From: Spirochaetota bacterium
GTDB taxonomy: Bacteria; Spirochaetota; JAAYUW01; JAOAHJ01
Assembly: GCA_026415295.1 (NCBI GenBank)
Contig: JAOAHJ010000026.1
Span: 11,638-75,637 of the forward strand
Direction: 5' to 3'
Length of the DNA: 64,000 nucleotides
Below the pieces are notes generated by a model. It was not told the DNA's origin, did not search any database, and saw only the letters and a list, made by a program, of their open reading frames with translations. Positions 21,398 through 53,700 of this stretch are shown in pieces (the first letter of the stretch is position 1; every line of letters starts with the position of its first letter). Position numbers and translations under genes: made by a program.

Positions 21398-21398
21398 T

Positions 21399-22517: not shown

Positions 22518-22523
22518 ATTTAT

Positions 22524-33945: not shown

Positions 33946-34645
33946 TATTATTTATTCTTTCCTTTAAAACTAATTCAGCTAATTTTAAATCAAAAAATTC
34001 ATCAATATCTATAGAATCTTCTCTATTCATTATAAAACCATAAATATCTTTTTTAATAAAAAAAGTTTTATGTTTTAAATATTGATCTACTTTACAAATA
34101 TATATAGCACCATTAAGTCTATAATATTTAGGTAAATCTTGAGATCTTTTATTTAAAAATTTTTTCTTAATAAAATTTGACATACTTAAGTTAGAAGGAA
34201 GTTTATTACACCATTGTAAAGGATAATCTACTTCACATACTGATATAATACAATTTGCACTTTTATTAATTAAAAAATCAATAGCACCATCTATATGTTT
34301 TTCATTTCTTAAAGGACTAGTAGGTTGAAGTAAAATAATAAATGCAGATTTATCTATATTATATTTTTTTATTATATATAAAATAACATCATCAGTTGAA
34401 GCATTATCAGTAGAAAGATAAGATGGTCTTTGATCTATAATTATATTATATCTTTCACAAATATTTTTAATTTTTTCATCATCGGTAGTAACAATAATTT
34501 TGTCTATATATTTACTCTTTAAGGCTGATTCAATAGTCCAACTAATTAACGGCTTGCCATTTAATGGGAAATAATTTTTACCTTTAATTCTTTTACTTCC
34601 GCCCCTAGCAGGAATAATAGCGATAAATCTTTCGTTATTATTCAT
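33932..34645 (-). CDS. CMP-nonulosonate synthetase (acylneuraminate cytidylyltransferase family; LegF/NeuA-like)
   Basis: IAIIPARGGSKRIKGKN...LQPTSPLR motifs of CMP-NeuAc synthetase family. Confidence 0.85.
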   Translation of the reverse strand: MNNNERFIAIIPARGGSKRIKGKNYFPLNGKPLISWTIESALKSKYIDKIIVTTDDEKIKNICERYNIIIDQRPSYLSTDNASTDDVILYIIKKYNIDKSAFIILLQPTSPLRNEKHIDGAIDFLINKSANCIISVCEVDYPLQWCNKLPSNLSMSNFIKKKFLNKRSQDLPKYYRLNGAIYICKVDQYLKHKTFFIKKDIYGFIMNREDSIDIDEFFDLKLAELVLKERINNNEYS

Positions 34646-35700: not shown

Positions 35701-35718
35701 ATAAAACTACCATAAAAT

Positions 35719-36888
35719 TTAAATTTTAAAAAATGATTTTTTAATCTTATCAAAATCTAAATTTCTTATTATATCTAATATTTTCTTTGATGTATTACCA
35801 TCACCATAAGGGTAAAAATTAATATTTTTAATTTTTTCTCTAAAATCCTCACTCAAAGCTAGATTTATAGCCTTAATTATTGAGTTTTTATCATAATCAC
35901 AATCAATAATACTTTCTGTTTTTATTCTTCCATTTTGTCTACTACCAATATTAACTGTAGGAACCTTAAAATAAGGTACTTCAACAATTCCACTAGATGA
36001 GTTACCAATTACTGCATCAACATATCTTATAGTACTTAAATAAAACAATTGCCCCATGGATGTAAAAAGAACAGCCTTACTTTTATTTTTTTTTACATAA
36101 TTTTCTATATATTTATTTATTATTCTTCCTTTTGGATCAGCATTGGATTTTGTAAAAATTAACAAAGTATCTTCAAATTCATCTAGTGCTTCCAATAAAT
36201 TTTTTATTTGTTTTTCTACATCCATTTCTTCTATTGTTGGGGGATGAAATGTTATTAGAAAATTATGTCTCTTAAACTTTATACCAATTTTTTTTTCAAT
36301 CTCATTAAAATTTAAAAAATTCATATTTTTTATATTATCTATAGAAATATCTCCAACAACATATACATTTTCTGGATTTTCTCCTAATTGAATAACATTT
36401 CTTTTATATTCTTCTGTAGAAACAAAATGAATATGACTTAATTTAGTTATACAATGTCTAAAACCATCGTCTAAAGATCCTTCTGTGATCTCTCCTCCAT
36501 TTAAGTGAATTAATATAATTTTATTAATATAACAACAAATTGCAAAAATTAAAGATTCAAATCTATCGCCTAAAACTATAGCCATGGTTGGTTTTAATCT
36601 TTTTAATGCATCAGCAAACCCAATCAAACCTAAACCCATTGATTTTAATATTCCTTCATTGGTATCTGATGATAATAATATTTCAATTTTTTCATTTATT
36701 TTAAAATTATCTTTTTCAATATCTTTATAAGTCAATCCAAACTCTGGAGATAAGTGCATACAAGAAACTAATAATTGTAAAGAAAATTCTTTATTTTTTT
36801 TAATTTCACACAATAATGGTCTTAACAAACCATATTCTGATCTAGAACCGGTAAATACACAAATCTTATTAATTTTTTTCTTTTTCAT
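35719..36888 (-). CDS. Hydrolysing UDP/GDP-HexNAc 2-epimerase (NeuC/LegG family)
   Basis: KICVFTGSRSEYGLLRPL...HLNGGEITEGSLDDGFRHCITKLSHIHF typical of NeuC-type hydrolysing epimerases. Confidence 0.85.
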   Translation of the reverse strand: MKKKKINKICVFTGSRSEYGLLRPLLCEIKKNKEFSLQLLVSCMHLSPEFGLTYKDIEKDNFKINEKIEILLSSDTNEGILKSMGLGLIGFADALKRLKPTMAIVLGDRFESLIFAICCYINKIILIHLNGGEITEGSLDDGFRHCITKLSHIHFVSTEEYKRNVIQLGENPENVYVVGDISIDNIKNMNFLNFNEIEKKIGIKFKRHNFLITFHPPTIEEMDVEKQIKNLLEALDEFEDTLLIFTKSNADPKGRIINKYIENYVKKNKSKAVLFTSMGQLFYLSTIRYVDAVIGNSSSGIVEVPYFKVPTVNIGSRQNGRIKTESIIDCDYDKNSIIKAINLALSEDFREKIKNINFYPYGDGNTSKKILDIIRNLDFDKIKKSFFKI

Positions 36889-37886
36889 AATTCAATAAAT
36901 TCATCCCTTTCGAAATCTCTAGAAGCAATTTTACCTATTATTTCTTTCCATCTCATTGGATTAATTCCATAACCTGGCCGTTTTGTTGTTATATTCATTT
37001 CAGAAAAAATTTCTCCTTTTTTTATATCTCTACTTGCAACTATACTTTTCCTTGCAATATTAATATTTTTTAATTCTGATTTTGTAGGTTTTTTTATACC
37101 ATCACCTAAAGCAGCCTCAACATTTCTTATACATTTAATCATTAATCTTAATTCATCAGGTTCAAGACTAGCTTTATGATCAGGTCCTGGCAAATTTTTA
37201 TCTAAAGTAAAGTGTTTCTCTATCACCTCTGCTCCTAAAGCTACAGCTGCAATTGGAATTTCTATTCCTAAAGTATGATCTGAATAACCAACTTTAACTT
37301 TAAATGCATCTCTTATGGTCAACATAGCTTTCAAATTTACATCTTCATATGGAGTAGGATATTCTGTATTACAATGCATTAAAATTATTTTTTCTCTTTG
37401 AGTTCCTGAACTTGTAAGTACATCAATAGCATCTTCAATTTCTCCCAAATCAGACATCCCAGTAGATAGAATAATATTTTTATTAAATCTACCAATTTTG
37501 GCTAAATAAGGATAGTTATTAATCTCACCACTTGGAATTTTAAAAGTATCCAATCCTAATTTATCTAAAAATTCAATACTTTTTATATCAAAAGCTGATG
37601 ATAAAAATTTAATATTTTTTAACTCACAATAATTTTTTAATTCTATAAATTCACTAAAACTCAATTCAAGTTTTTTTGCCATTTCTAATTGATTTTTATA
37701 ACTTTCCAAATTTTTCTTTTGATATTCTGCTAAAGTAGCATAATTTGTAATTTCTTCCTCTGAAATGAATGTTTGAAATTTAACATAATCTGCTCCACAA
37801 TTAACTGCTTCATCTATAAGTCTTTTTGCAAGTCTTATATCTCCGTTATGATTAACTCCAATTTCAGCTATTACAATTACTTTCAT
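36885..37886 (-). CDS. Nonulosonic acid synthase (NeuB/LegI/PseI family)
   Basis: VIAEIGVNHNGDIRLAKRLIDEAVNCGADYVKFQTF TIM-barrel N-terminus and C-terminal antifreeze-like domain pattern of NeuB. Confidence 0.9.
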   Translation of the reverse strand: MKVIVIAEIGVNHNGDIRLAKRLIDEAVNCGADYVKFQTFISEEEITNYATLAEYQKKNLESYKNQLEMAKKLELSFSEFIELKNYCELKNIKFLSSAFDIKSIEFLDKLGLDTFKIPSGEINNYPYLAKIGRFNKNIILSTGMSDLGEIEDAIDVLTSSGTQREKIILMHCNTEYPTPYEDVNLKAMLTIRDAFKVKVGYSDHTLGIEIPIAAVALGAEVIEKHFTLDKNLPGPDHKASLEPDELRLMIKCIRNVEAALGDGIKKPTKSELKNINIARKSIVASRDIKKGEIFSEMNITTKRPGYGINPMRWKEIIGKIASRDFERDEFIEL

Positions 37887-37895
37887 ATTTATTCC

Positions 37896-38567
37896 TTAAT
37901 ATTTATCATTATCTCTTATAACCCTACAAGGATTTCCATAAGCTATTTTATTATCAGGTATATCTTTAGTCACAACCGAACCAGCTCCAATTATACAATT
38001 TTTGCCTATTTTTCGTCCCAAAGTAATAATAACTCCATCATCTAAAAGAGTATTTTCATCAATTATAACTCCTCCAGATAAAATAACACCTGAAGCAATA
38101 TAAACATTATCATTTATAATATTATCATGATTAACTTGAGAACCTGTATTTATTACAACATTATTTCCAATTACTGGATTTGGAGTTATTAAACACCCAC
38201 ATTCTATTAAAACCCCTTTACCAATTTTAGCATTTTTACTAATAATGGCATCAGGATGAATAATATTAACAGGCTCCCAATTATTATCTACTAAAAATTT
38301 ATATAAAGAAATTCTTAATTTCATTGATCCTAAAGAAATAAAAAATTTATTTGTATTATATTTTTTTCTAATATTATCCAACCAATATTTATCATAATCC
38401 TTATAATCATGCAATACTGGGATTCCTTCAATTTCCTTACCCCACAAATTTTGATTAATATCCGCAATACCAACAGGAATATATTTCTTTTGTTCGTACA
38501 AATTATATAATACTACATTTAATTGTTGACCAGCTCCAAATAATATAATTTTTTCCTTAATCTTCAT
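37896..38567 (-). CDS. PglD/NeuD-family hexapeptide sugar N-acetyltransferase (LegH-like)
   Basis: N-terminal Rossmann-like ILFGAGQQ then left-handed beta-helix hexapeptide repeats. Confidence 0.75.
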   Translation of the reverse strand: MKIKEKIILFGAGQQLNVVLYNLYEQKKYIPVGIADINQNLWGKEIEGIPVLHDYKDYDKYWLDNIRKKYNTNKFFISLGSMKLRISLYKFLVDNNWEPVNIIHPDAIISKNAKIGKGVLIECGCLITPNPVIGNNVVINTGSQVNHDNIINDNVYIASGVILSGGVIIDENTLLDDGVIITLGRKIGKNCIIGAGSVVTKDIPDNKIAYGNPCRVIRDNDKY

Positions 38568-38610
38568 TTTTAATCTCCATTTTTAAAATTTTTTTAAATT
38601 ATATCCTTTT

Positions 38611-39792
38611 TCATATTCTGTACCCACTTGGAATATTTACTAATCTTTCTTCTATCCATTCACTATTTTTTAAATCAACTTTAAAACAATTTTTATACAT
38701 CGGTAGTTTATGCATTAATCTCCATACAGGTCTTGTCATAACTCCATTTTTATTAGTAAATTCAAGAAAATTATCCCTTTCTTCCTTATTACTTAATAAT
38801 ATAGCATTTAACCAATAATTTGATTTGCAACCTTCCGGTTCCTTTACAAATTTAACATAAAATTGATTAATATCATTTAAACTATTTCTTTTATATTTAC
38901 CTATATAATCTTCATACATTTTAGCAGTTTCTCTTTTATTATTAAGAATTTTATCAATATACTCCATTTGAGCAAAACCTATAGCTGCATTTACATTAGG
39001 TAATCTATAATTATAACCTACTTCATCATGTATATATTCCCATGGATGAGGAACCTTTGCAGTTTTCGTAACATGAATAAGTTTTTTGGCTAAATCATCA
39101 TCATTTGTTAAAATCATCCCTCCACCACCAGTAGTCACTGTTTTATTTCCATTGTAACTTAAAACCCCAGCAATACCAAATGTACCACAATGTTTATTTT
39201 TATAATAAGAACCAAGTGCTTCAGTAGCATCTTCTATAACAGGAAGATTAAATCTATTTGCTATATCAATTATTTTATCTATTTTACATGGGTGACCAAA
39301 AATATGAACAGGAACTACTGCTTTTACTTTTCTTTTAGTATTTTTATTAACTAATACTTTTTCCTTTTTGTCAAATTTAGTGTTCTTAACTAAAAACTCT
39401 TCTAAGCTTTCAGGGCTCATTCCTAGTGTATCAATATCGACATCAATAAATACAGGATAAGCTCCACAATGAGCAATAGAATTTGAAACAGCAACAAAAG
39501 TTAAAGCTTGTGTTATTACCTCATCTCCATATTCTACTCCAATAGTTTTCAGGGTAATATGTAAACCTGCTGTACCATTAACAACAGCTATAGCATATTT
39601 AGATTTTGTAAAATTTGCTGTAATTTTCTCAAATTTATCTACAAATTCTCCAACATATGATACAAAAGTAGAATCAATGCATTCTATTAAATATTTCTTT
39701 TCATTTCCTATAAATACCGGTTCATGAAGACCAACTTTGTCTTTTTTATAAATTTCCTTTATAAATTTAATAAAATCTTCAAAAAAATTCAT
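38611..39792 (-). CDS. DegT-family aminotransferase (LegC/PglE-like)
   Basis: AVVNGTAGLHITL, SYNGNKTVTTGGGG lysine region of sugar aminotransferases. Confidence 0.85.
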   Translation of the reverse strand: MNFFEDFIKFIKEIYKKDKVGLHEPVFIGNEKKYLIECIDSTFVSYVGEFVDKFEKITANFTKSKYAIAVVNGTAGLHITLKTIGVEYGDEVITQALTFVAVSNSIAHCGAYPVFIDVDIDTLGMSPESLEEFLVKNTKFDKKEKVLVNKNTKRKVKAVVPVHIFGHPCKIDKIIDIANRFNLPVIEDATEALGSYYKNKHCGTFGIAGVLSYNGNKTVTTGGGGMILTNDDDLAKKLIHVTKTAKVPHPWEYIHDEVGYNYRLPNVNAAIGFAQMEYIDKILNNKRETAKMYEDYIGKYKRNSLNDINQFYVKFVKEPEGCKSNYWLNAILLSNKEERDNFLEFTNKNGVMTRPVWRLMHKLPMYKNCFKVDLKNSEWIEERLVNIPSGYRI

Positions 39793-39814
39793 TTTCTACC
39801 TTCTCAAAATATTT

Positions 39815-41023
39815 TTACATCTTTTGATCTAAATATTTCTCTTTTTCAATATGTGTAAATTCAGGTAAAACTTTTTTAAAAAGATCAACTATCTCTTTTT
39901 TTTCTATTCTTTTTTTATTTTTTATTTTGTCAATCTCAACTAAAAATTCATCTATTAGGGTCAAATCTAAGGAATAATTAAGTTTCATAACTCCTATATC
40001 ATCAAACCTATCAAGGTCAATAATATCATTATTTGTATAAAACTCTTCAAATTCTTTTTCTCCAGTTGTATCAGTTTTAGAAATATAACATGGCCATTTA
40101 CCTTTATCAGGTAATATTTTAGCCAGTTCTCTTGCTTCATCTTCATTTTTACATAAATATATATCATAACCTATTTTATTAAGAAAATTTTGAGCTATGT
40201 CCCAAAAAGTAATCATATCGTTTATAGGATCCAACTTTGGAAAAAATATTTCCTTATTTTCACCACATAAAACATTAAGTAAACAGAGAACACCAGACTC
40301 TGATGGAATAATAAAATATCTTTTAACATCATCAGGTGTTGTTATAGGCTGTTTTTTCATTATCCTTTGAATAAATCCATATAATAAACTTCCATCACTG
40401 AAAGCTACATTAGCAAATCTTGCAGTTGAAATCTTAATTTTATCTGAATATTTTATTAAAAAAAGCTCCATTATTCTTTTAGAAGCCCCCATTAGATTAA
40501 CTGGATTTGTAGCTTTATCAGTAGAAACACAAAAATATTTTTTTACACCTTTTTCAATAGCTAATTCAATAGTCTTAATTGTATTTAATATATTGACATC
40601 AATCATTCTCATTAATGTATAGGGATCTCTTTCACTTCTTACATGCTTTAAAGCTGAAAAATTTAATATATAATCATATCCATCAGAATCATGAAAAAGT
40701 TTATCATAAATAGGAGTACCAACATCAATAGCAAATGTTCTAAAATCACCATTTATATAACCTAATGAACTTCTTATATCTCTAACTAATTCTGCAAGAT
40801 TATTTTCAGAAATATCAATTATATGTAAAACTTTAGGATTTCTTTTAAAAATCTCTTTAACAGTTGCACTCCCAATGGTACCTGCACCACCAATTACAAG
40901 AAAAGAACTGTTTTCAATAATACTCTTTATATAATCTTCTTTATTTTTTAAATCATTAGAGAAAAGTTTCTTTTTTCTTTTTAACAAAAATAAAATAAAA
41001 TCTTCGTCAAAAAAATAAAACAT
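39815..41023 (-). CDS. Soluble CapD-like NAD-dependent 4,6-dehydratase (LegB/PglF-like)
   Basis: FLVIGGAGTIGSATVKE, CVSTDKATNPVNLMGASKRIMEL. Confidence 0.75.
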   Translation of the reverse strand: MFYFFDEDFILFLLKRKKKLFSNDLKNKEDYIKSIIENSSFLVIGGAGTIGSATVKEIFKRNPKVLHIIDISENNLAELVRDIRSSLGYINGDFRTFAIDVGTPIYDKLFHDSDGYDYILNFSALKHVRSERDPYTLMRMIDVNILNTIKTIELAIEKGVKKYFCVSTDKATNPVNLMGASKRIMELFLIKYSDKIKISTARFANVAFSDGSLLYGFIQRIMKKQPITTPDDVKRYFIIPSESGVLCLLNVLCGENKEIFFPKLDPINDMITFWDIAQNFLNKIGYDIYLCKNEDEARELAKILPDKGKWPCYISKTDTTGEKEFEEFYTNNDIIDLDRFDDIGVMKLNYSLDLTLIDEFLVEIDKIKNKKRIEKKEIVDLFKKVLPEFTHIEKEKYLDQKM

Positions 41024-41057: not shown

Positions 41058-42377
41058 CTATAATTTAAAAACTTTCCCATCTTCTATATGAACTTGTTTT
41101 ACCGCATTTCTCAAATCTACAACAAGTTTAGCTTTTTCTACAATATGATCAACATCAAAACAAGAATGTAAAGTTGTAAATACTACGCAATCTACCTCTT
41201 CTAAAAGATCATCTGTTAAATCAACCCCTTTATAGTAATTTCCATGCTCAGATGTAACTTCTGGAATATATGGATCATGATAAAGAACAGTAGCACCTTT
41301 TCTTTTTACTTCATCCATAACTCTTAATGCAGGAGATTCTCTCGGATCATCAATATCAGCTTTATAAGCAACACCCAAAAATAAAACTTTGGAGCCATTC
41401 ATTGCTTTTTTATGTCTGTTTAATGCATAAGCTATTTTATTCATCATTCTGTATGGTTGCATATCATTTATATGTCCAGCAGTATGAATCATAGTAAGAT
41501 CAAAGTTATAGCTTTTAGCTATATATTCCAAATAAAATGGATCAAGAGGAATACAGTGCCCACCTATTCCTGGTCCGGGATAAAAAGCTTGAAAACCATA
41601 TGGTTTAGTTTTTGCTGCTTCAATAACTTCCCATATATTTATATCCATTTTTCCAGCAAGGAGAGCAAGCTCATTTATCAAACTTATATTTATTAATCTA
41701 TATGTATTTTCAAGGATCTTAACCATTTCTGCTGCCCTTGGAGAAGATACTGGATAAAGAGTATCTATAGCTTTCGAATATATTGCCATAGCTATTTCTT
41801 GTGCTTCTTTTCCAAGACCTCCAACAACTTTTGGGGTATTTTCTGTTTTATATATTTTATTACCTGGATCTACTCTTTCAGGAGAAAAACAGAGCCAAAA
41901 ATCTTTACCTTCTTCCAACCCAGATTCTCTTTCTATAATAGGCTTCATAAAATTTTCTGTTGTAGTTGGATAAGTAGTACTTTCAAGACTTATAAAAGTT
42001 CCAGGCTTCATGTTTCTTCCTATATCGATACAGGAAGTTTCTATATAGCTCATATCTGGTTTCTTGAATATATCAAGAGGTGTAGGAACACATATCATAA
42101 CACAGTCACATTCCTTTATTCTACTAAAGTCAACAGTTGCTTCAAGATATTTTTTATCAACTGAATATTTTAATTCCTCATCTTTTACATCACCTATATA
42201 ATTTTTACCTTTATTTACAAGATCAGCTCTATCTTTGCTTTTTTCAAAGCCTATAACTTTAACCCCCTTTTTTGCAAAAGCAACAGCTAAAGGAAGCCCA
42301 ACATAACCAAGACCAATAACACCAACAACTACTTTATTCTCTTTTATTTTTTGCATTATTTGTTCAAAATAATTCAT
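41058..42377 (-). CDS. Nucleotide-sugar 6-dehydrogenase (UDP-GlcNAc/ManNAc dehydrogenase; WbpA/WecC-like)
   Basis: VGVIGLGYVGLPLAVAFAKKG N-terminus, catalytic Cys region GPGIGGHCIPLDP. Confidence 0.85.
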   Translation of the reverse strand: MNYFEQIMQKIKENKVVVGVIGLGYVGLPLAVAFAKKGVKVIGFEKSKDRADLVNKGKNYIGDVKDEELKYSVDKKYLEATVDFSRIKECDCVMICVPTPLDIFKKPDMSYIETSCIDIGRNMKPGTFISLESTTYPTTTENFMKPIIERESGLEEGKDFWLCFSPERVDPGNKIYKTENTPKVVGGLGKEAQEIAMAIYSKAIDTLYPVSSPRAAEMVKILENTYRLINISLINELALLAGKMDINIWEVIEAAKTKPYGFQAFYPGPGIGGHCIPLDPFYLEYIAKSYNFDLTMIHTAGHINDMQPYRMMNKIAYALNRHKKAMNGSKVLFLGVAYKADIDDPRESPALRVMDEVKRKGATVLYHDPYIPEVTSEHGNYYKGVDLTDDLLEEVDCVVFTTLHSCFDVDHIVEKAKLVVDLRNAVKQVHIEDGKVFKL

Positions 42378-42510: not shown

Positions 42511-43677
42511 TTATTTAAAAAATTCTTCAATTTTTCCACAAACATAATCAATTTCTTCATCAAGCATTTCAGGAAAAATAGGTAAAGCTAATATTTCATT
42601 GGATATCTTTTCAGAAATAGGAAAATCTCCTTTTTTATAACCGAGATATTCAAAACATTTTTGTAAGTGTAATGGTAGAGGATAATATATAGAGGTCCCG
42701 ATACCATTCTTTTCAAGATAATTCTTAAGTTGATCTCTTTTTTCTGTTCTTATATTAAAAACATAATAAACATTTCTACCTTTATTTTTATCAACTTTAA
42801 AAAGCTTAACATCTTTAACTTTAGACAATCTATCTTCATAAATTTTTGCTATATTTTCTCTTTTTCTTATAGACTCCTCTATGTATTCAAGTTTAACTCT
42901 TAAAATTGCTGCTTGTAAAGTATCAAGTCTTGAATTATAACCAATATAGTCATGATAATACTTTTTCTTAGTACCATGGACTCTATAAGCTTTTGCAAGA
43001 TCAGCTAAATCACTATTATTTGTAACTATCATACCTCCATCACCATAACAACCAAGTGTTTTAGTAGGGAAAAAAGAGTATATACCAAAATCTCCAATTG
43101 TACCTGAATGAACCTCTTTTCCTTCAAAATTAACTTTTATTCCAAAAGACTCTGCTCCATCTTCAAGAACTTTTAAATTATAATTTCTTGCAATTTTCAT
43201 TAATTTATCCATATCACATGTTTGGTTAAAAAGATGAACTGGTAAAATTCCTCTAATATTTTTTAATTCTATAATTTTCCCATTATGTATAAAATTTCCT
43301 GCTTTTATTTTTTCTAAAATCTCCTCTATTTTTTCTACATCAATCTGACATGTATCTTCATCAATATCTACAAATATTGGTGTTGAGCCATTTCTAGCTA
43401 AACAGGAAACAGATGCAAAAAAAGTAAAAGGAGTTGTTATAACATAAGTTCCTTCTTTAAAACCAAGAATATCAGAGCATATAACAAGAGCATCTGTCCC
43501 TGATGCACAAGCTATGGCATATTTTGCACCTGTATATTTACATATATCTTCTTCAAATAGCTTTACCTCTTCTCCTAAAATAAAATCACCTCTTTTTATA
43601 ACTTTTTGAATAGCATGATCGAATTTTTCTTTATTTTGTATATATTCCCTTGTAGGTGTATAAAATGGAACTTGCAT
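42511..43677 (-). CDS. DegT-family aminotransferase (WbpE-like)
   Basis: CASGTDALVICS, FFPTKTLGCYGDGG PLP-lysine region. Confidence 0.85.
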   Translation of the reverse strand: MQVPFYTPTREYIQNKEKFDHAIQKVIKRGDFILGEEVKLFEEDICKYTGAKYAIACASGTDALVICSDILGFKEGTYVITTPFTFFASVSCLARNGSTPIFVDIDEDTCQIDVEKIEEILEKIKAGNFIHNGKIIELKNIRGILPVHLFNQTCDMDKLMKIARNYNLKVLEDGAESFGIKVNFEGKEVHSGTIGDFGIYSFFPTKTLGCYGDGGMIVTNNSDLADLAKAYRVHGTKKKYYHDYIGYNSRLDTLQAAILRVKLEYIEESIRKRENIAKIYEDRLSKVKDVKLFKVDKNKGRNVYYVFNIRTEKRDQLKNYLEKNGIGTSIYYPLPLHLQKCFEYLGYKKGDFPISEKISNEILALPIFPEMLDEEIDYVCGKIEEFFK

Positions 43678-43821
43678 ACTCTTATCCTTTATATATAAAG
43701 TTATTTATTATCTTTATATATTATTTATTTAATCTATTAATTTATTAATTGTTATTATATTATTGTTTATTATATTATTTGTAATTTATATTTTAACTAA
43801 CTCTATTTAATAAAATCCAAA

Positions 43822-43838
43822 TGTTCAATTTTTGAACA
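43822..43838. promoter_or_regulatory. Candidate operator: palindrome TGTTCA-ATTTT-TGAACA, 145 nt upstream of the wbpE-like start
   Basis: Perfect 6-bp inverted arms with 5-nt spacer, read directly from the sequence; second copy at 44505-44521. Confidence 0.45.
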
Positions 43839-43877
43839 ATTTAATATTTTAAAAAAATTAATCAATAAAAAATTTTT

Positions 43878-44501
43878 CTAATCAATATTTTTTAAAATAG
43901 CATCATCATTTATAAAATCAATAATATTAGTTAAATTACTATTAATATATTCATTATCATAAGAATATTTTAAACTTTCTAAAACTTTTTTTAACTCTTC
44001 TTCACTTAAATTCTCAGAAAACATATAAAAAGAACATTTTGCTTCTTCAAAAAAATATTTATCCTCTATTAAACTTTCTATATCCTTATAATTTATATTT
44101 TTATATATCAATCCAAGCTTAATACAACAATATTCTACTATAAAATCAAGCTGACTTTTACCAAATAGAAAAACATTTCTAATACCTTTATCTCTTTTTT
44201 CTTTTAGCATCCTCATTATTGCATCTTTATATATATAAGCATTTTTAGCTATTGATTTAAAGTATGTAAGACTTCTTTTATAAATAGCATTGAGCCCTTC
44301 TTTTGTTAAGATATAGCTATATGTTTTTTTATTTATTTTACTTATTTTTATTAAACCTGTATTAACTGCTTTTTTTAATATTAGATTTAACATTCCAAGA
44401 GATATATTTAAAGCTTTAGCGATCTCTCTCTGAGTAAAAGGTTCATTTCTTTTATTTTTTTCTAAAATATAAGATAAAAAATTATATTCATGATTGTTCA
44501 T
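43878..44501 (-). CDS. Small winged-HTH transcriptional regulator (family uncertain)
   Basis: FTQREIAKALNISLGMLNLILKKAVNTGLI helix-turn-helix; flanked on both sides by the same palindrome. Confidence 0.5.
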   Translation of the reverse strand: MNNHEYNFLSYILEKNKRNEPFTQREIAKALNISLGMLNLILKKAVNTGLIKISKINKKTYSYILTKEGLNAIYKRSLTYFKSIAKNAYIYKDAIMRMLKEKRDKGIRNVFLFGKSQLDFIVEYCCIKLGLIYKNINYKDIESLIEDKYFFEEAKCSFYMFSENLSEEELKKVLESLKYSYDNEYINSNLTNIIDFINDDAILKNID

Positions 44502-44504
44502 TTT

Positions 44505-44521
44505 TTGAACAATAATAAATA
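44505..44521. promoter_or_regulatory. Candidate operator: palindrome TGTTCA-TTTTT-TGAACA ending 3 nt before regulator ATG (minus strand)
   Basis: Extended arms TTGTTCA / TGAACAA; occupies the expected RBS position of the regulator gene. Confidence 0.45.
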
Positions 44522-44570: not shown

Positions 44571-44774
44571 TTATGAAAAAATATTTAAAAAAACATCCAA
44601 AATTTTTTCTGCTGTTTTTCCATCGCCATAAAGAAGTTCTTTTCTTCCATAAATGGGCATTTTTTCAAGAATTTCAAGTATTCTATTTTTATCTGCACCA
44701 ACAATAAAGTTCCAACCAGAATCAACAAGTTCAACCCATTCAGTTGAATCTCTTAAAGTAATACAAGAGTTATT
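44571..44774 (-). pseudogene. 3' remnant (last ~65 codons) of a non-hydrolysing UDP-HexNAc 2-epimerase gene (WecB/WbpI family)
   Basis: Minus-strand translation NNSCITLRDSTEWVELVDSGWNFIVGADKNRILEILEKM...YGDGKTAEKILDVF matches the conserved C-terminal LRD-TERPE...LVG...YGDG region of WecB. Starts in frame directly after the TAA of the MCP gene; no upstream 300 codons present. Confidence 0.7.
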
Positions 44775-46637
44775 TTATTCGATTAATTTTTCACCTAAAA
44801 CATTTTCTACTTTAAATTTTTTAGCTACCTCTGAAAGCTTAATTGATTCCTCTTCCAGAATTTTTGCTATATTTGTAACTTTTTCTGAAGCATTAACTAT
44901 ATTTAATACACCTTTATTTATATCATCGATTGATGTCATTATTTCTCTCGAGCCTTGAGTTTGTTCAGACATCTGCTTTGCTATATCATTTATAAGTCTA
45001 CTTGTTTGAATAACTTGTTGAATAATTTTTTGTATTGTATTTTTTGATTTATCTATAAGATCAATAGCATCATTAACAGATTTAACATTTTCTTTAATTC
45101 TCTTTCCTATCTCTTCTGCTGTATTGCTTGACTGTTCAGCTAAAGCTCTAATTTCTGCAGCAACAACTGAAAAACCTTTGCCTGCCTCTCCAGCTCTTGC
45201 AGCCTCTATTGAAGCATTTAATGAAAGAAGGTTAGTTTGTTCTGTTAAATCATTTATCAAATTTAGTGAGGATTTTATCTTATTTGAATGATCTTCTATT
45301 ATTCTCATTTTTTCAACAATTTCATTTAAAAATTTCTGACCCTGATCTGCGTATTGAGATCCCTCTGCAATCATTCTATTTGTTTCTTCAACATTTTCAT
45401 TTAATTGATTTATTGCACTTAAAGACTCTTCTAATATTGCAGATATTTCTTCAACTGAGGTTGCTTCAGAGTTTGAAAAATCAGCAAGAACTCCTGTTAT
45501 CTTTCTATTATCTTCAATTATTTCCTTTAACTTATCTGAAAATTTGATAATTTCTCCAATAACTTCCTCAAAATTAGCAATCAAGTTATTAAAAGAATTA
45601 AGTAAATCATCCAGTTCTGCTGAATTTATCTTCTGTATCTTAAATCTTTTAAGAATTCCTGTATCTGAAACTTCCCTCATATGTCTTGAAAGCCTGTTAA
45701 ATGGACTAAGCAATCTATTTGATGTAATAACAGCAATTATTATAAAAATAACAAGAAATACTGCAGAAAAAAGTAAAAATATTTTAAAAACATTATTAAA
45801 TAATTCTTCAACAGTAGATAGGTGAAGTAAGGAAACAATTTTTATCTTTAAAAAATCTGAAGGAACAACTTTTATATAAAAAGTTTCTTTTTTATTTATT
45901 TTATCTCCTTCTTTAGTAGTATATTCTACTAAAAAGTTTGTTATCCTCGTTTTTTGGAAAAAATCTACAGGGGGAATATCATAGTAAGATTTGAAAATAT
46001 TGTAAGTTGCAAATAATATAGTTCCATCAGCCTTAAAAACTATAAGGTCAGAAGTAGTAGCTTTTATTTGCCTTTTCAACATAGAAACAAAAGCTGTCAT
46101 ATTGACATCAAAAGCTAGTATTCCTTCGAATAATCCATCATTGTTAAATATTGGTGTAGCTATAGTAACAGTAAGACTTCCTGTAACAGGATCATTGTAA
46201 AAATCAGTTACCAAAGTATCATTTTTATTTCTTACATCCTCATACCATCCTTTAAACCTTTTATCAAGCTCTTTAACATAAATAGTCTCATCATCAGCAA
46301 AATAAAGCATATTATCATCATACCATGCATATGCTGCTGATATATCTGTAAAACCTTTTGCATAATTAAAAAGAAGTTTCAAAATTTCAGATTGATTTCT
46401 TGTTTTAAAAATTTGCATCTCTCTTAATATCTCAACTTCTTTAGAAAACTTAAAAAAGATATCTTCAGTTAATCTTAAAGTATAATTTATAGATTGAACA
46501 ATATTTTCTTCTATATTGTTTATAAAAAAGTTTCTACCAAATGTTAAAAACAATATATTAAATAAAATTGGCATCAAAAGAATAAAAGAAAATGTTAGGA
46601 TAAATATTTTTGATTTAATTGACTTAAATATTTTCAT
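44775..46637 (-). CDS. Methyl-accepting chemotaxis protein (TM, Cache-like periplasmic sensor, TM, HAMP, MCP signalling domain)
   Basis: NLLSLNASIEAARAGEAGKGFSVVAAEIRALAEQS highly conserved MCP hairpin motif; two TM helices bracket ~260-aa sensor. Confidence 0.9.
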   Translation of the reverse strand: MKIFKSIKSKIFILTFSFILLMPILFNILFLTFGRNFFINNIEENIVQSINYTLRLTEDIFFKFSKEVEILREMQIFKTRNQSEILKLLFNYAKGFTDISAAYAWYDDNMLYFADDETIYVKELDKRFKGWYEDVRNKNDTLVTDFYNDPVTGSLTVTIATPIFNNDGLFEGILAFDVNMTAFVSMLKRQIKATTSDLIVFKADGTILFATYNIFKSYYDIPPVDFFQKTRITNFLVEYTTKEGDKINKKETFYIKVVPSDFLKIKIVSLLHLSTVEELFNNVFKIFLLFSAVFLVIFIIIAVITSNRLLSPFNRLSRHMREVSDTGILKRFKIQKINSAELDDLLNSFNNLIANFEEVIGEIIKFSDKLKEIIEDNRKITGVLADFSNSEATSVEEISAILEESLSAINQLNENVEETNRMIAEGSQYADQGQKFLNEIVEKMRIIEDHSNKIKSSLNLINDLTEQTNLLSLNASIEAARAGEAGKGFSVVAAEIRALAEQSSNTAEEIGKRIKENVKSVNDAIDLIDKSKNTIQKIIQQVIQTSRLINDIAKQMSEQTQGSREIMTSIDDINKGVLNIVNASEKVTNIAKILEEESIKLSEVAKKFKVENVLGEKLIE

Positions 46638-46944
46638 ATTAATACTCTTTTATTTATATTATTAATTATTAATTTTTTGATTGATAATCACTATTAATTT
46701 TCGACTTTGTAAAATTTTTAATAGTATTTTAAAAAAATTAAATATTAAAAAACATTTTACAAAATTTAAAAATAAATTTAAAACTAATAAAGTTGATTTA
46801 AACATTGAAATTAAAAGGAGAAAATATATGAAAAAATAAGTTTTCACTTCTTTATGTAGATTTTATAAAAAAAAATTAAAAAATCAAAATATTTTTGAAA
46901 ATTTTATTATTTTTAAACCATATATTTTATAATCTTTTTTACTT

Positions 46945-48483
46945 TTAATCTATTTTAAAATTTTTTATACTTTCATCTATCTTCTTAGATGTGCTCAAAA
47001 TATCTTTAGCAATCCTTCCCAGGATTTCACTACTTTCAAGAAATTTTTGTGTAGTTTGATTTATATCTTCAACTGCTTTTGATAACTCTTCGTTTACATT
47101 TGCTTGCTCAGAAATAGATTCTTTAATCTCTTTTAAAACATTTGATGAAGAAACATTCAACTCAAGAATACTTTTAAGCTTTTCTTTTGAACTTTTAATA
47201 GATTCAAGCGATTCTTCCACAATTTTTTCATTTTCTTTAATAATTTTTTCAATTTCAGAGACTGTATTTTCTGCTTTTTCAGCTAAATTTCTTATTTCTT
47301 GAGCAACAACAGCAAAACCTATTCCTACTTCCCCAGCTTTTGAAGCTTCAATTGAAGCATTTAAAGCTAAAATATGTGTTTCATCAGTTATCTCATAAAT
47401 AAGCTCAATAGATTTCCTTATTTTTTTTGAATAATCAAAAATTTTAGATATAGAATCCACAATACTATCAATATATTTTGTAGCATCAATAGCTTTTTTA
47501 CTTCCTTCGATTATCTTTTCAGAACTTTCTTTTGCATTTTCTGAAATCATCTTAATAGAAGAAGTAGCTTCTTCAATTGCTGAAGATATTTCTTCAAGAG
47601 ATGAAGCTTGAGAATTAATGGATTCTAAAAAATTGCTCATTAAAGAATTATTTTTATAAGAAATATTATTTAATCTTTCTGTAATATTTTTAAGGCCATT
47701 TATAATATTTATAAGATTATCAACCATTATATTTACAGAATTTGATAGTTTACCTATTTCGTCTTTTTTAATTTTTATGTTTATTTTTCTAAGATTACCG
47801 TCCGCAATAATTTTTGTATGATCTGATATCTTATTAATAGGAGCAATAATCTTTTTTTCTACATATATTATTAAAATTATATCCATAATAAAAACAAAGA
47901 TAATAACTGCAAGAAGTCTCCAGTACATCTTAGAAAGAATTTTTACATAAAAGCTTACATCATAGTCAACACCAATAATAGCATAAACTTCGCCCTGATC
48001 ATTTAATAAAGGTTCAAAATAGGAAACAAAAGTTCCATATTCATCGGTATAAGGTTTTCTGGTAAATGTAGCTTGTTTTGTTTTGTAAGCTTCAACTAGT
48101 TCTTTAGGTGGATAATCATATACTGAAAGGTAATCTTTTTTAAATAATTCATAATCAAATTCATTTGACATTAAAAAAATAAAATTATCATCTTTTGGCT
48201 CCATAATATAAAGGTAAATAAAACCAAATATTTTAGCTATTCTATTAGTTTGATCAACAATTTTTTTATATTCCTCCCAATTATTGGCAAGCTCTTTTAT
48301 TTTATTTACATCTGTATATTCAGGAATTAGTTTTGCTATTTCTATACCTTTTTTCATTGTTTCTTTAAAATCTTTAAATATTAACTCATATAATATAAAA
48401 TTTCTAATTAACGAAAATGTAAAAATTACAATAAATAAAGCAAAAATAAAAATAATTAAAGCAACTCTAAATCTAATAGACAT
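46945..48483 (-). CDS. Methyl-accepting chemotaxis protein (paralog)
   Basis: [35 protein letters not shown]; GGAGG SD upstream of ATG. Confidence 0.9.
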
Positions 48484-48653
48484 TTTTCCTCCACTTTTTT
48501 TTAAAAAATTTTTATATAAAATGAAATATTTGTCAATATTTTTTGATTAAAAAAAAAATTTTATTAAAAAAAGAGAAAATTTTAACTAATTTAATTCTAA
48601 AAAATTTAGAGTAAATTAGAATAAAATTATTAGAATAAAATTAAAAGTTCATA

Positions 48654-50201
48654 TTAAAATTCATACTGAAATTTTTTGATATTTTCATTTATTTCTTCTG
48701 AAATATTACTTATCTGATATGAGAGTATCTCTATCTCTTTACTATTTTTCAGATAATTTTGTGCAATTTCATTTATTTCTTCAATAGCTTTTGTTATATT
48801 TTCTGCACTGTTTACATTCTCAGAAATATTATTCTTTATATTATCAAGAATTTTTGAAGAAATAAGATTTATTTCAATTATATTATTAAGTTTATTTTTT
48901 GAATCATTAACAAGGTTTAAAGCTTCATTTATAATTTTATCATTTTCTTTAATAGAATTTTCTATTTCTACAAGCATTTGAGATGCTTTATCTGAAAGGT
49001 TTTTTATTTCTGTTGCAACAACAGCAAAACCTACACCCATTTTACCAGCTTTAGTTGCTTCTATTGCTGCATTTAAAGCTAATAGATTAGTTTCATCTGT
49101 TATATCATATATTATTTTTAAAGTTTTCTTAAGGTTTTTAGAAGATAAATAAATATTATTCATTGCATTAATCATTCTGTCAATATAATTCTTAGCATCA
49201 AAAGCTTTCTTATTCCCTTCATGAATAATAATTGTATTTTCTGTAACATATTGCTCAATTTCCTTTATATTTTTTGTTGCTTTCCTTATTGAAGAAGAAA
49301 TTTTCTCAATTGATAATGCTTGATAATTAAAAGAATCAATAAAATCTTCTACTACATCATTATTTTTATTAGATATATACTTAAGTTTTTGTGTGGTATT
49401 ATTAAGGTGCTCTATAATAATTTTAAAATTATCAACCATTATATTAATATTTTTAATTAATACATTTATTTCATTGTTTTCATTATTGTCCTTATGATAA
49501 AATTTTTGGAGAAATCCTTTAGAAATATGTCCTGTATGCTGAGAAACTTTTTTTAAAGGAAAAACAATTTTTCTTTGTATAAAGAAAGTAAAAATATAAA
49601 TAACTGTTAAAACAAAAAATACTATAAAACCAGCATAAAAGTAAAATCTTCTATAAAAATTATTAACAAAATCGATATCATAATAAAAACCAACAATAGC
49701 TTGAACTTTATCAAGTTTTGTAATTGGACAAAATAAAGCAACAAATTCTCCAAATTGATCCTTATAAGGTTTACTTAAAAATACTTCTCTCTTTTCATAA
49801 TAAGCTTTCTCCATTTCTGGTGGAGCATCATAATATATCCAAAAAAAATTTGATTTATTTATACTTGAGTTTCTATCATTTGAAATCAAAAAAACAAAAC
49901 CTTGATCTGATGGTTTAAAGATATATATATATCTAAAATTGAATATTGAGCAAATTTCATCAAGAAAATTTAATATTTTATAATAATAAGATGACTCTCT
50001 ATTAAAATTTAAAAGTTCATTTATCAATTCTGGATTTTCTTTAATATAAAATAAAAAATTTTTAGAACCTTTTATAAGATTATCATTTATCAAGCTACTT
50101 ATTAATTCTCTAGTTAAAAATAGAAAGGTAAAAACAAATAAAATTATTATCGTAATAGATATAAAAAAAATTATAAGTGTTATTTTTCTCTTTAGTGACA
50201 T
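48654..50201 (-). CDS. Methyl-accepting chemotaxis protein (paralog); start reassigned to internal Met
   Basis: NLLALNAAIEATKAGKMGVGFAVVATEIKNLSDKA; AGGAG SD 5 nt upstream of ATG at 50201 (M16 of the track ORF). Confidence 0.85.
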   Translation of the reverse strand: MSLKRKITLIIFFISITIIILFVFTFLFLTRELISSLINDNLIKGSKNFLFYIKENPELINELLNFNRESSYYYKILNFLDEICSIFNFRYIYIFKPSDQGFVFLISNDRNSSINKSNFFWIYYDAPPEMEKAYYEKREVFLSKPYKDQFGEFVALFCPITKLDKVQAIVGFYYDIDFVNNFYRRFYFYAGFIVFFVLTVIYIFTFFIQRKIVFPLKKVSQHTGHISKGFLQKFYHKDNNENNEINVLIKNINIMVDNFKIIIEHLNNTTQKLKYISNKNNDVVEDFIDSFNYQALSIEKISSSIRKATKNIKEIEQYVTENTIIIHEGNKKAFDAKNYIDRMINAMNNIYLSSKNLKKTLKIIYDITDETNLLALNAAIEATKAGKMGVGFAVVATEIKNLSDKASQMLVEIENSIKENDKIINEALNLVNDSKNKLNNIIEINLISSKILDNIKNNISENVNSAENITKAIEEINEIAQNYLKNSKEIEILSYQISNISEEINENIKKFQYEF

Positions 50202-50305
50202 AAAATCTCCTATAAAGGAAGAAATCTCCCTATATAAGAGAAACAAGAAAATGTTTTAATTTTATTTTTTAATAATTTTTTTTTTATTAATTTTTTTAAA
50301 AAATT

Positions 50306-50938
50306 TTAATACTTTTCAACTAACCCATCTGAATATTCTTCATAAATTTTATTGCATTGAGAGCAAAAATAAACATTATTTTCTCTTTTTTGCAATGTTA
50401 CTCCACATTTACAAACCCATCCTATTTGTTTTGCAGGAACTCCAACCATTAGTGCAAAAGAAGGAACATCCTTTACAACTACTGCTCCAGCACCAATAAA
50501 AGCATAATCACCTATTGTCACCCCACATACAATTGTTGCATTAGCTCCAATAGAAGCTCCTTTTTTAACAAGAGTTTTCCTATATTCATGTTTTCTTTCT
50601 ATGAAAGCCCTTGGATTTATAACATTTGTAAAAACCATCGAAGGACCACAAAAAACATCATCTTCAAGAACAACATCATCATAAACTGAAACATTATTTT
50701 GTATTTTAACGCCATTTCCTATAATAGCTTTTGAACCAATATTAACGTTCTGACCAATTGAACAATTCTTCCCTATTCTCGCACCACTCATTATATGAGA
50801 AAAATGCCACACTCTTGTTCCCGTACCTATATAAGAACCAGCATCAATATAAGAACTTTCATGAACTTTATATTCTCCTAAACCATCATCCGATTTAAAT
50901 ATTTTAAGTTCACCTTCTTTTCTTAAAAACTCTCCCAT
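50306..50938 (-). CDS. Hexapeptide-repeat sugar N-acetyltransferase, WbpD/WlbB-like, with C-terminal Cys4 Zn-ribbon tail
   Basis: [59 protein letters not shown]...[10 protein letters not shown] closely follows the WbpD/WlbB family; tail CKCG...CSQC. Confidence 0.8.
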
Positions 50939-50961: not shown

Positions 50962-53451
50962 TTAAAAACTAATAAATTTTATTTCTTTGAGACTTCCTGC
51001 TTCTATAATCCTCTTTTTAATATATATTTTGAGATAGTTTGCTTTCGTTGAATTTCTATCTATAAATACCTCACAATTTCCTGAAATATTTAACTCCCCA
51101 CTTTCATATAAGTATGTTGCAAAATCTCCTTTTGCAAAAACACCTCTTTTTTTATCTATATCGCTTTGTTCAAAAATAAAAGACACTTTATTTTTAAATA
51201 AAAATGTCTTACTTTCCCATAAAACTTCCATAACCTCTGATTTAACAATAAACTTATCTTTTATATTAATAAAAAAAGGATAACCAATAATAGATGCAAA
51301 ATTTTCTTTATTAACTATTTTAGCACTTTCACCTCTTTGTATTAATTCTATTTTATCACTTTGAAGATAATCATTTTCATTGCTCCATTTTATCAAAAGG
51401 ACTTTCTCATCAAGTTGATAAGTATCCTCCTCTTTTCCTTCATAAATTAAGTTATTACAATAAATATAAAGTAAATTTACAAAATCAAAAACTTTAACAT
51501 TTTTTTCTATTTGAAAGCTACCTATTTTATTATTAATTTTGGCTTTATCACCTTTAATTATTCTTGAAGCAAAAAAAATAGATAAATCTTTCCTGATTTC
51601 TTTTGAAATTTTATCTTTATCTATTTCAAACCTAGATATTTTTTGAATATTTTCATATATAATTTTATTTGATGCAGGATAAGTAAAAAAATATAAATTT
51701 TCTTTATTTTTTTCAATCAATTCTATTTCATTTTTTTCATTTTCAATCAAAAGATTTTTAAAGTTAAGAAGGTTATCTGTATCAACTTTGAAAATATCAT
51801 AAAATTCTGGTTCATATTTATACTCGCAAATTAAAACATCTTTATTTGAATAAGCTTCTTCTTTAATAAAATCATAGTAAAAATCATCACCAATTATTAT
51901 ATAATTTTTTAAATAATTTTTTACAATACACATTTCTCTTATAGAAAAATATTGATCCGAATAAAAATCTCCTTCTTTTGAAGAAAAAAATATATAATTT
52001 TTTATTTCCTCTTTTTCTCTTAAATTTTTAAAATTTCTAAGTTTAAAATCTTTATCAAAAAAAATTGAAAAGTTTAAATAATAATAATTTTTCTCATTAT
52101 TATATAAATAATTAATTTTAGAAAAATCGATTTTACTTTTCTCTTTATCAACTTCAATTACATAATTAAAAGCATTATTATAAGAAAATCTGTAGTATGT
52201 TGCTTTTATATCACTTTTCTTATTAGACTCGTTTTTTTTATCCCTAATAGCTAGATTCCTATTTACAAATTCATATTCAAGGTATGATCCATCTGAATAA
52301 AATAGAGTATTTTCAGATAATCTAGTTAAATTTCCCTTATTTATCTTTAATATGTAATTTTGTCCATAATCTTTATATGTAAAAACACCATTATTTCCAT
52401 AAAAGTGGATTCTATCATCTTTGCTCTCATAAATAACAGTAGCTGAATTATAAATATAATCTAATGTTTTTATTTCAATGTTAGAATTAATAATACTTGA
52501 ATTTTCTAAACTATTTTCATTTTGTTCTTTATTTACATCTTTTTCAGGTAATTCAATTTTGAATTTATGAGATCTTCCTGCTCCTCTAAAAGATAACTTT
52601 TTATTATAGTCAAAAATTAAATAATCTCCACTTTCAATTTCAATATATGTATTTAAATTTTCCCTTTTTATAGATACAAATTCTCCCCTAAAATCTATTC
52701 TATTATTTTTGTTAGATATTTCACCTTTTACATTATTCTTAAATGAAACTTTCAAATTATTATTATCTAAAATAATAAAATCAGATTGGACAAAAATGTT
52801 TTCATCATTCTGGTTAACTCTATCATTAATACTTTTTATTTTAGAATCATAAAAACAGTTAATTATTTTTTTTTCTAGATCAATCAACATTATATCTGAT
52901 AAAATTTCAATGTTATTATTATAGTCAACTATTTTAGCATTTTTACTTATGGAAACATTTTTCACTTGTTCAAGAGAATTTAATTTTATAAGATCACCTG
53001 AAATAGTTTGTATTATTTTCCCACTATTATATACATTTATTAACCCAGTTTTTACGAGAACATACTTCCTATTATTTAATTTGTTATAAACAGAATAAGC
53101 TTTTTCTCCTGATACAGAAACATCAAGAATAAATTCTCCTTGATTTTCAATAAATCTTTCAATAAAAAATTTATTAATATATAACTCTTTTTTCAATAAA
53201 AAAGTTTGATTAAACTCATTTTCTATCTGATCAATAAATGATAAATTTTTAATTATCTCATCATCTACTTTATAAATTTCTTGATTAATTGAACTATTTA
53301 CTTCACTCTTTCTATTTTTATTTACTATAATTAAAAACAAAACAACAAAAAGAAAAAATATTAAAATTAAAAAAATTAAAAAGGGTCTTTTGATAAATTT
53401 TAATTTTCTTAATTTTAATAAACTATTAAATATATTATTTAAATTGTACAT
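50962..53451 (-). CDS. Large hypothetical protein with N-terminal signal-anchor (829 aa)
   Basis: Single N-terminal TM ([20 protein letters not shown]), long beta-rich N/K/I extracytoplasmic region with vague LptA/OstA-like repeating pattern; no confident domain. Confidence 0.6.
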
Positions 53452-53472: not shown

Positions 53473-53700
53473 TTAATTTTTAATCAACCTTTCAAGTCTT
53501 GCTCTATCAAAACCTATTATAATTTCACCATTAAAATCTATAACTGGAACACCAGTTTGGCCTGATTTTTTAACCATTTCTAAAGCTCTAGAGTAATCTT
53601 TACTAACATCTACATCTTCAAAATCAATATTTTTTGATTTTAAAAATTGCTTTGCTAACTGACAATATGGACATGATGGTGTAGAATAAACAATTATCAT
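53473..53700 (-). CDS. Glutaredoxin-like protein (NrdH/YruB family)
   Basis: 75 aa, CPYC active site, TGVPVIDFNGEIIIGF. Confidence 0.8.
   Translation of the reverse strand: MIIVYSTPSCPYCQLAKQFLKSKNIDFEDVDVSKDYSRALEMVKKSGQTGVPVIDFNGEIIIGFDRARLERLIKN

Follow-up and report, generated by a model that had tools for sequence, protein, structure and literature searches.

A truncated WbpI-type 2-epimerase gene behind a chemoreceptor gene in a spirochaete glycan locus: probable remnant of a deletion of about 1.1 kb

How does the tail of a sugar-nucleotide 2-epimerase gene come to lie, in frame, directly behind the stop codon of a chemoreceptor gene? The question is raised by a 64-kb stretch of contig JAOAHJ010000026.1 (the window; 22.5% G+C), which belongs to a metagenome-assembled genome (MAG) of an uncultured Spirochaetota bacterium. 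As an earlier, sequence-only reading had described, three paralogous methyl-accepting chemotaxis protein (MCP) genes stand here between a wbpD-like gene and wbpE/wbpA-like genes, and a 5'-truncated WbpI-type 2-epimerase remnant follows the TAA of the last of them. We conclude that positions 44574–44774 (minus strand) are very probably a pseudogene fragment of a WbpI/WlbD-type UDP-2,3-diacetamido-2,3-dideoxy-glucuronate 2-epimerase gene, cut by a deletion of about 1.1 kb.

On the minus strand the last chemoreceptor (MCP1) terminates in ...GEKLIE followed by TAA, and the next 67 codons (44774 to 44574), which continue in the same frame, read NNSCITLRDSTEWVELVDSGWNFIVGADKNRILEILEKMPIYGRKELLYGDGKTAEKILDVFLNIFS. 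Similarity of this translation to WecB-family C-termini, which the sequence-only reading had expected, is significant: the fragment covers positions 280–345 of 347 in the Pfam model Epimerase_2 (PF02350; E=1e-10, 41.5 bits against a gathering cut-off of 30.6) and positions 295–364 of 366 in the NCBIfam wecB model (TIGR00236). Among solved structures it is most similar to that of the Thermus UDP-2,3-diacetamido-2,3-dideoxy-glucuronic acid 2-epimerase (8SXV, E=8e-10), E. coli WecB (1F6D) reaching only E=7e-3, and the remnant is nearer to the UDP-GlcNAc3NAcA 2-epimerases than to the UDP-GlcNAc 2-epimerases (WecB/MnaA). The conserved catalytic-site residues of the Thermus enzyme are Arg12, Lys17, Asp98 (the base), Glu120, Ser284, Glu290, Arg302 and Glu306 (PMC10622841); two of these eight, the equivalents of Arg302 and Glu306, are retained, within LRDSTEW in the alignment with 8SXV. 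Enzymes of this type are full-length, two-domain proteins of about 360–385 amino acids that include the catalytic base Asp98, which 67 codons do not provide, and tblastn finds no trace of the N-terminal 307 amino acids of the epimerase near the remnant. With its N-terminal domain lost entirely, the catalytic base with it, and six of the eight catalytic-site residues gone, the remnant cannot be an epimerase. A derivation from the C-terminus of a paralogue within the window was considered and rejected, as the FnlC-like gene is just 35% identical and tblastn gives no other hit.

What the intact arrangement may have looked like is indicated by a 7.4-kb Logan contig (SRR27730033, referred to as L002), which was found via regulator homologues of 51–60% identity. 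It carries, in this order, a degraded MCP3 homologue, MCP2, MCP1, a 190-bp spacer, an intact epimerase gene and the regulator, and the synteny comparison suggested by the sequence-only reading thereby places an intact 372-amino-acid epimerase between MCP1 and the regulator. Amino-acid identity between the window and L002 is 88% for MCP1, 73% for MCP2 and 60% for the regulator, and the remnant is 68.8% identical to residues 309–372 of the L002 epimerase (E=7e-25). The latter matches 8SXV over its full length with 385 bits, a Methanocaldococcus UDP-GlcNAc 2-epimerase with 291 bits and E. coli WecB with about 150 bits. The nucleotide alignment of the two loci is collinear but for one gap:

Window 46675 to 44805 (minus strand), L002 2906–4772: 82.7% nucleotide identity
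Window 44767 to 44586 (minus strand), L002 5928–6109: 78% nucleotide identity
Window 44541 to 44050 (minus strand), L002 6312–6805: about 76% nucleotide identity

Missing in the window is about 1.1 kb of L002 (about 4815–5926), which consists of the MCP1–epimerase spacer and epimerase codons 1 to about 307. Across the junction the window reads GAA TAA AAT AAC TCT TGT ATT ACT, the left part of which is the end of MCP1 in L002, GAA TAA AAT ATC T (GAATAAAATATCT), and the right part of which is the L002 epimerase from codon 308 or thereabouts onward, AAA CCT TGT GTT ACT; the remnant begins at epimerase codon 308–309, approximately. The context of the MCP1 stop, GAATAAAAT, is common to the window and L002, the junction can be placed within about 9 nucleotides, and the deletion begins 3–9 nucleotides past the native stop of MCP1. 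Since MCP1 still ends at its own stop codon, the agreement in frame between it and the remnant is a coincidence with a prior of one in three, and no gene-fusion meaning, as had been entertained earlier, attaches to the in-frame position.

The features on which the following argument draws are listed from high to low coordinates; L008 (JGI 3300031812) is a further relative, with an MCP1 homologue 77% identical to that of the window, and L007 is a locus from an 'uncultured Brachyspira sp.' MAG.

53473–53700, minus strand: glutaredoxin-like gene
50962–53451, minus strand: gene for an 829-amino-acid protein without family match
50306–50938, minus strand: WlbB/WbpD-like hexapeptide N-acetyltransferase (PDB 3MQG, WlbB, 239 bits, E=3e-70; 76% amino-acid identity to the L008 orthologue)
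48654–50246, minus strand: MCP3, a paralogue of MCP2 (41% amino-acid identity; Pfam MCPsignal), the probable true start being an ATG near 50201
46945–48483, minus strand: MCP2, with HAMP and MCP signalling domains (Pfam; amino-acid identity 73% to the L002 and 61% to the L008 orthologue)
44775–46637, minus strand: MCP1, a dCache-type methyl-accepting chemotaxis protein, intact and with its own stop (Pfam MCPsignal 5e-39, dCache_1)
44766–44777, minus strand: proposed deletion junction, MCP1 TAA (44777–44775) and then AAT AAC TCT, the breakpoint lying inside these approximately 9 nucleotides
44574–44774, minus strand: epimerase 3' remnant, very probably a pseudogene fragment, 67 codons corresponding to about codons 308–372 of 372, with stop TAA at 44571–44573
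44494–44512: perfect TTGTTCA-N5-TGAACAA palindrome that overlaps the start codon of the regulator, a putative autoregulation operator
43878–44501, minus strand: winged-helix regulator with a MarR_EPS-like N-terminus and a C-terminal extension of about 100 amino acids (HTH_24, E=1.4e-5)
43821–43839: second copy of the palindrome, with one mismatch, in the regulator–wbpE spacer
42511–43677, minus strand: DegT-family sugar aminotransferase, WbpE-like (Pfam DegT 9e-107; 76% amino-acid identity to the L008 orthologue)
41058–42377, minus strand: UDP-N-acetyl-hexosamine 6-dehydrogenase family, WbpA-like (TIGR03026, 420 bits; amino-acid identity 87% to the L008 orthologue and about 82% to L007)
below 41023: long run of further sugar genes, legionaminic/pseudaminic-acid-like and FnlABC-like by reading of translations

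As far as its state is concerned, the remnant has no in-frame stop, and an open frame of 67 codons is expected by chance at the composition of the window with P of about 0.006. Over 60 aligned codons it is 72% identical to L002 and 67–70% identical to L005 and L007, two loci with intact epimerases, while the intact L002 epimerase is 62–63% identical to those of L005 and L007, so the remnant is not the more diverged of the two from the outgroups. The ratio of nonsynonymous to synonymous substitution rates (dN/dS) is 0.19–0.33 for pairs of the remnant with an intact gene and 0.25–0.26 for the intact pairs of L002 with the outgroups. Since the remnant shows no decay yet, its frame being open and its dN/dS that of intact copies, the deletion looks recent, too little time for decay being the simplest reading.

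The same figures would also suit a fragment that is still translated, whether as a small functional protein or as a tail, for instance through reinitiation or read-through behind MCP1, and the public record indeed annotates positions 44574–44762 (P0001) as a 63-amino-acid 'UDP-N-acetylglucosamine 2-epimerase'. This is, however, extremely improbable: the 5' end of the remnant offers no ATG, GTG or TTG start with a Shine-Dalgarno sequence, the first in-frame ATG being codon 38, and P0001 begins MTLRD..., where the window has ITLRD, with an ATT codon at the position of its Met. Moreover, the fragment has neither the catalytic base nor any of the N-terminal domain, a purifying signal is to be expected if most of the divergence accrued while the gene was intact, and no stand-alone homologous fragment was found elsewhere. 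The other short hit, P0002 (101 amino acids, L001 3677–4767), was rejected as a second natural remnant because it represents the end of a full-length gene that a scaffold gap (XXX) interrupts. An assembly artefact, with a full-length epimerase present in the actual genome and about 1.1 kb dropped by the MAG assembler, deserves consideration given the nature of the source. The regulator and MCP1 are 100% identical to proteins of a 104,304-bp NCBI contig labelled 'MAG: Spirochaetes bacterium', P0001, the only near-identical hit to the remnant, is the annotation of that same record and no independent evidence for the junction, and exact-sequence look-ups with the window regulator and P0001 returned no record, hence no independent copy of the junction. 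Yet the junction lies in unique sequence of a long contig (104 kb) without any repeat across both endpoints that could cause a collapse, the sole similar sequences in L002 being the palindrome copies at 4955 and 6341, which are off the endpoints, and relatives show similar, independent decay (MCP3 is a pseudogene in L002, and L008 lacks an epimerase). We therefore consider an artefact very unlikely.

That the three MCP genes entered an uninterrupted wbp operon as a block, the remnant marking the boundary of the insertion, was one meaning that the sequence-only reading gave to its rearrangement or insertion scar. The remnant does adjoin the MCP block, and in L008 wbpD, wbpE and wbpA are contiguous with the MCP genes outside, which makes an earlier move of the block possible. 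As the cause of the truncation, insertion has next to no probability: it is contradicted by L002, which has the orthologous MCP2–MCP1 pair in the same place together with an intact epimerase and the 190-bp spacer, MCP1 of the window stops at its native stop codon, and the MCP genes are old paralogues with no mobile-element features nearby. Because L002 has this pair beside an intact epimerase, the adjacency of MCP and epimerase genes is older than the truncation, and it is the rearrangement half of the earlier interpretation that stands.

Several points weigh against the deletion as reconstructed here. The source is a MAG contig, for which a local assembly error is formally possible; the intact epimerase beside MCP1 is present in one close relative only, L002, itself an automated Logan contig; the low dN/dS could also reflect continuing selection on the fragment; and at a nucleotide divergence of about 20% neither the precise breakpoint nor how the deletion arose can be read from the alignment, its endpoints lacking convincing microhomology or flanking repeats.

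According to the history that we propose, the epimerase gene would formerly have lain between MCP1 and the winged-helix regulator, and in the lineage of the window, after its divergence from that of L002, one deletion of about 1.1 kb would have taken the spacer of about 190 bp and the first 307 or so epimerase codons, together with any promoter or operator that the lost spacer may have carried. MCP1 would have been left intact with its native TAA, its frame shared with the remnant by coincidence, and the downstream regulator, wbpE and wbpA retain their own promoter-like region and both palindromic sites and are probably still expressed. If the genome encodes a 3-dehydrogenase at another place, the gluco-configured sugar would now be the end point of the pathway. 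The remnant is ordinary gene decay, in a surface-glycan locus that rearranges fast in this uncultured, low-GC spirochaete. The sequence-only reading had also considered a loss of the manno-configuration step, and this holds in so far as the 2-epimerase step is lost from this locus, its gene being truncated. In practical terms, the 63-amino-acid public entry should be flagged as a pseudogene fragment, and in a metabolic reconstruction of this MAG no ManNAc3NAcA synthesis should be credited to the locus. The comparison also illustrates rapid glycan-locus rearrangement in these uncultured spirochaetes; beyond annotation, its significance is slight.

Other relatives place the truncation in a wider context. 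In L005, L006 and L007 an intact epimerase is followed by the regulator; in L005 and L007 a DegT gene comes after it, and beyond this gene L007 has a toxin-antitoxin pair (by correspondence with L004) and then the dehydrogenase. Because of the gene order in L005–L007, epimerase–regulator–wbpE–wbpA can be regarded as a conserved core module. Upstream of the epimerase, L007 has neither an MCP gene nor wbpD, and the contigs of L005 and L006 stop 124 bp upstream of it. L008 shares the gene order of the window from the glutaredoxin-like gene, via that of the large protein without family match, to wbpD, and then goes on with wbpD–wbpE–wbpA–MCP2–MCP1 and a DegT gene 80% identical to window 14259–15380 (L008 4002–12589, compared with window 14259–50938). 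It has no epimerase, regulator, MCP3 or counterpart of about 26 kb of glycan genes of the window (15.4–41 kb). The WbpE and WbpA proteins of the window are 76% and 87% identical to those of L008, in line with the flanking genes, and the wbpE/wbpA genes of the two are orthologues at different positions relative to the MCP block. Horizontal import of wbpE–wbpA from a Brachyspira-like donor was rejected on the same figures, identity to L007 being about 60% and 82%.

Two histories are equally parsimonious. Either the ancestor had the order wbpD–MCPs–epimerase–regulator–wbpE–wbpA, and L008 moved wbpE–wbpA and lost epimerase and regulator, or the ancestor had wbpD–epimerase–regulator–wbpE–wbpA–MCPs, L008 lost epimerase and regulator, and the lineage of the window and L002 moved the MCP block between wbpD and the epimerase. 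The MCP block may thus have been translocated at an older date to its place between wbpD and the remaining module; in either history, it was not such an event that cut the epimerase gene. The locus has been rearranged repeatedly, and decay is recurrent, as the MCP3 pseudogene in L002 and the absence of the epimerase from L008 show.

All three MCP open reading frames (ORFs) match MCPsignal (3.5e-28 to 5e-39), with dCache_1 in MCP1 and, above the cut-off, HAMP in MCP2. They are old paralogues, 29–41% identical to each other in amino acids, rather than recent duplicates. A protein search with MCP1 (JGI, Logan, ENA, NCBI) found three relatives only at an identity of at least 77%, namely the orthologues in L002 (88%), L008 and L009 (77% each); in L009 the homologue adjoins cheB, in a non-glycan context, and more distant homologues (Exilispira sp., 52%; L012, 46%) are in unrelated contexts. 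The MCP3 homologue of L002 (173–1094) has an in-frame stop near 593 and lacks about 220 codons, including the signalling domain; because it is a pseudogene, gene decay at the locus is not confined to the lineage of the window.

The regulator scores 42.7 bits against MarR_EPS (TIGR04176), under the cut-off of 88 bits, and passes only a generic winged helix-turn-helix model (HTH_24, 25 bits against 21.9). Its homologues, the 51–60% identical proteins through which L002 was found, lie downstream of intact epimerases in L002, L005, L006 and L007. As a query over genome contigs the regulator protein gave no match, an alignment of regulators found one locus, L007, and the same alignment gave no match over metagenome contigs. 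The palindrome TTGTTCA-N5-TGAACAA is present at the regulator start in every regulator-bearing locus (L002–L007), with a conserved TTCTTTACA about 30 nucleotides upstream of it, and is absent from L008, the locus without the regulator. Where sequence covers the region downstream of the regulator (L002, L004, L005 and L007), this region contains a second copy, which is exact in L004, L005 and L007, in the equivalent non-coding spacer and upstream of the DegT gene where this is present, and also exact in L002, at 7347, where the next gene is beyond the contig end. L002 has a third copy 30 nucleotides upstream of its intact epimerase. The positions recorded in the relatives are:

L002: 4955, 6341 and 7347
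L003: 1452
L004: 686 and 1460
L007: 9990 and 10764

From this distribution, the palindrome is probably the operator of the regulator. The L002 copy upstream of the epimerase resembles the regulator-upstream region of the window; recombination between operator copies was nonetheless rejected as the cause of the deletion, since such an event would take out the entire epimerase and its endpoints are not those observed. Because palindrome copies and deletion endpoints do not coincide, the palindromes did not mediate the deletion. If the ancestral spacer held a third copy like that of L002, the deletion in the window removed it. A promoter and terminator scan of 43.7–51.1 kb was uninformative, giving 62 promoter-like sites where 57.8 are expected, and not a single terminator. 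A tentative and rather doubtful extension of these observations is that epimerase–regulator–wbpE–wbpA forms the regulon of an undescribed, long MarR_EPS-like regulator putatively binding the palindrome, that loss of the 2-epimerase, which would have occurred at least twice in the clade (by deletion here and as absence in L008), may switch the product from manno to gluco as a form of glycan variation, and that the embedding of the MCP genes might reflect co-regulation. A testable operator motif for an uncharacterised regulator associated with extracellular polysaccharide is a by-product of the comparison.

The sequence-only reading had assigned the genes around the MCP block to one well-known pathway, the five-enzyme route of WbpA, B, E, D and I to UDP-ManNAc3NAcA, of which the Thermus 2-epimerase is the WbpI-equivalent last step (PMC10622841). 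The predicted WbpD and WbpI types are well supported, the former by a match to WlbB (3MQG) of 239 bits with a runner-up at 132 bits, which identifies a WbpD/WlbB-type 3-N-acetyltransferase. The WbpE-like and WbpA-like assignments are supported only at family level: the DegT aminotransferase matches 7B0D (329 bits) and QdtB (284 bits) ahead of WbpE, which is third (236 bits), and the dehydrogenase resembles UDP-ManNAc/GalNAc-type dehydrogenases, under the equivalog cut-offs (PDB 3G79, 4R16, Cap5O). A WbpB/WlbA-type 3-dehydrogenase (Gfo/Idh/MocA family) was not found in the window, in an ORF screen that was not exhaustive; L007, within its 10-kb flanks, and L008 gave none either. In the window just two candidates for the WbpB step were identified, adjacent, very divergent and weakly Gfo/Idh/MocA-like ORFs (30715–31674 and 31698–32672), and no WlbA- or WbpB-named entry is among their solved-structure matches. 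With the remnant truncated, no functional WbpI 2-epimerase was found at the locus; the other Epimerase_2 genes of the window are the FnlC-like gene (20270–21448; 35% amino-acid identity to the L002 epimerase) and a paralogue (35719–36888), which gives no tblastn hit to the L002 epimerase and is read as NeuC-like from sequence and context. The pathway assignment is accordingly plausible but incomplete.

Further sugar genes were identified by reading their translations. An FnlA/B/C-like set lies at 20270–23552, and 33932–41023 carries a legionaminic/pseudaminic-acid-like set of NeuB, NeuC-like, CMP-sugar synthetase, CBS-nucleotidyltransferase, PglD-like, DegT and PseB/FnlA-like dehydratase genes, of which the dehydratase (39815–41023), the sole member scanned, scored under the FnlA and PseB cut-offs. 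Together these sets appear to be part of one very large glycan locus of about 12–51 kb. Apart from this, the translation of 61854–63959, a predicted protein of 701 amino acids, shows an acidic segment in a long internal duplication (…TSEEIELPSLEEEPKISEEEIELPSLEEQTL.EEKIPESLE…).

Compared with known systems, the regulator resembles the MarR_EPS family in its N-terminal winged helix, which matches positions 9–88 of 105, and in its setting within a polysaccharide locus between palindromic sites, but it is twice as long, with an extra C-terminal domain of about 100 amino acids that has no family match. The remnant shares with WbpI of P. aeruginosa, WlbD of Bordetella and the Thermus thermophilus enzyme (WP_011172736, 8SXV) the motifs C-[IV]-T-L-R-D-S-T-E-W-V-E-L and L-Y-G-D-G-K-T-A-E-K-I, which align to 8SXV at about 299–360, and its locus holds WlbB/WbpD-like, WbpE-like and WbpA-like genes; unlike these enzymes it represents only about 17% of the gene, without Asp98 or the N-terminal Rossmann-like domain. 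For four of the five steps of the Wbp/Wlb pathway the lineage has recognisable homologues (those for A, E and D within the window, that for I intact in relatives), whereas the genes in the window are broken up by three chemoreceptor genes and a regulator and their order varies among close relatives. Deletion-derived pseudogene remnants are a general phenomenon in variable O-antigen and capsule loci, and the present case is like them in that a truncated biosynthetic gene stands in a mosaic, rearranging glycan locus whose relatives differ by gain, loss and reordering of genes; only the conserved co-location with chemoreceptor genes sets the window locus apart.

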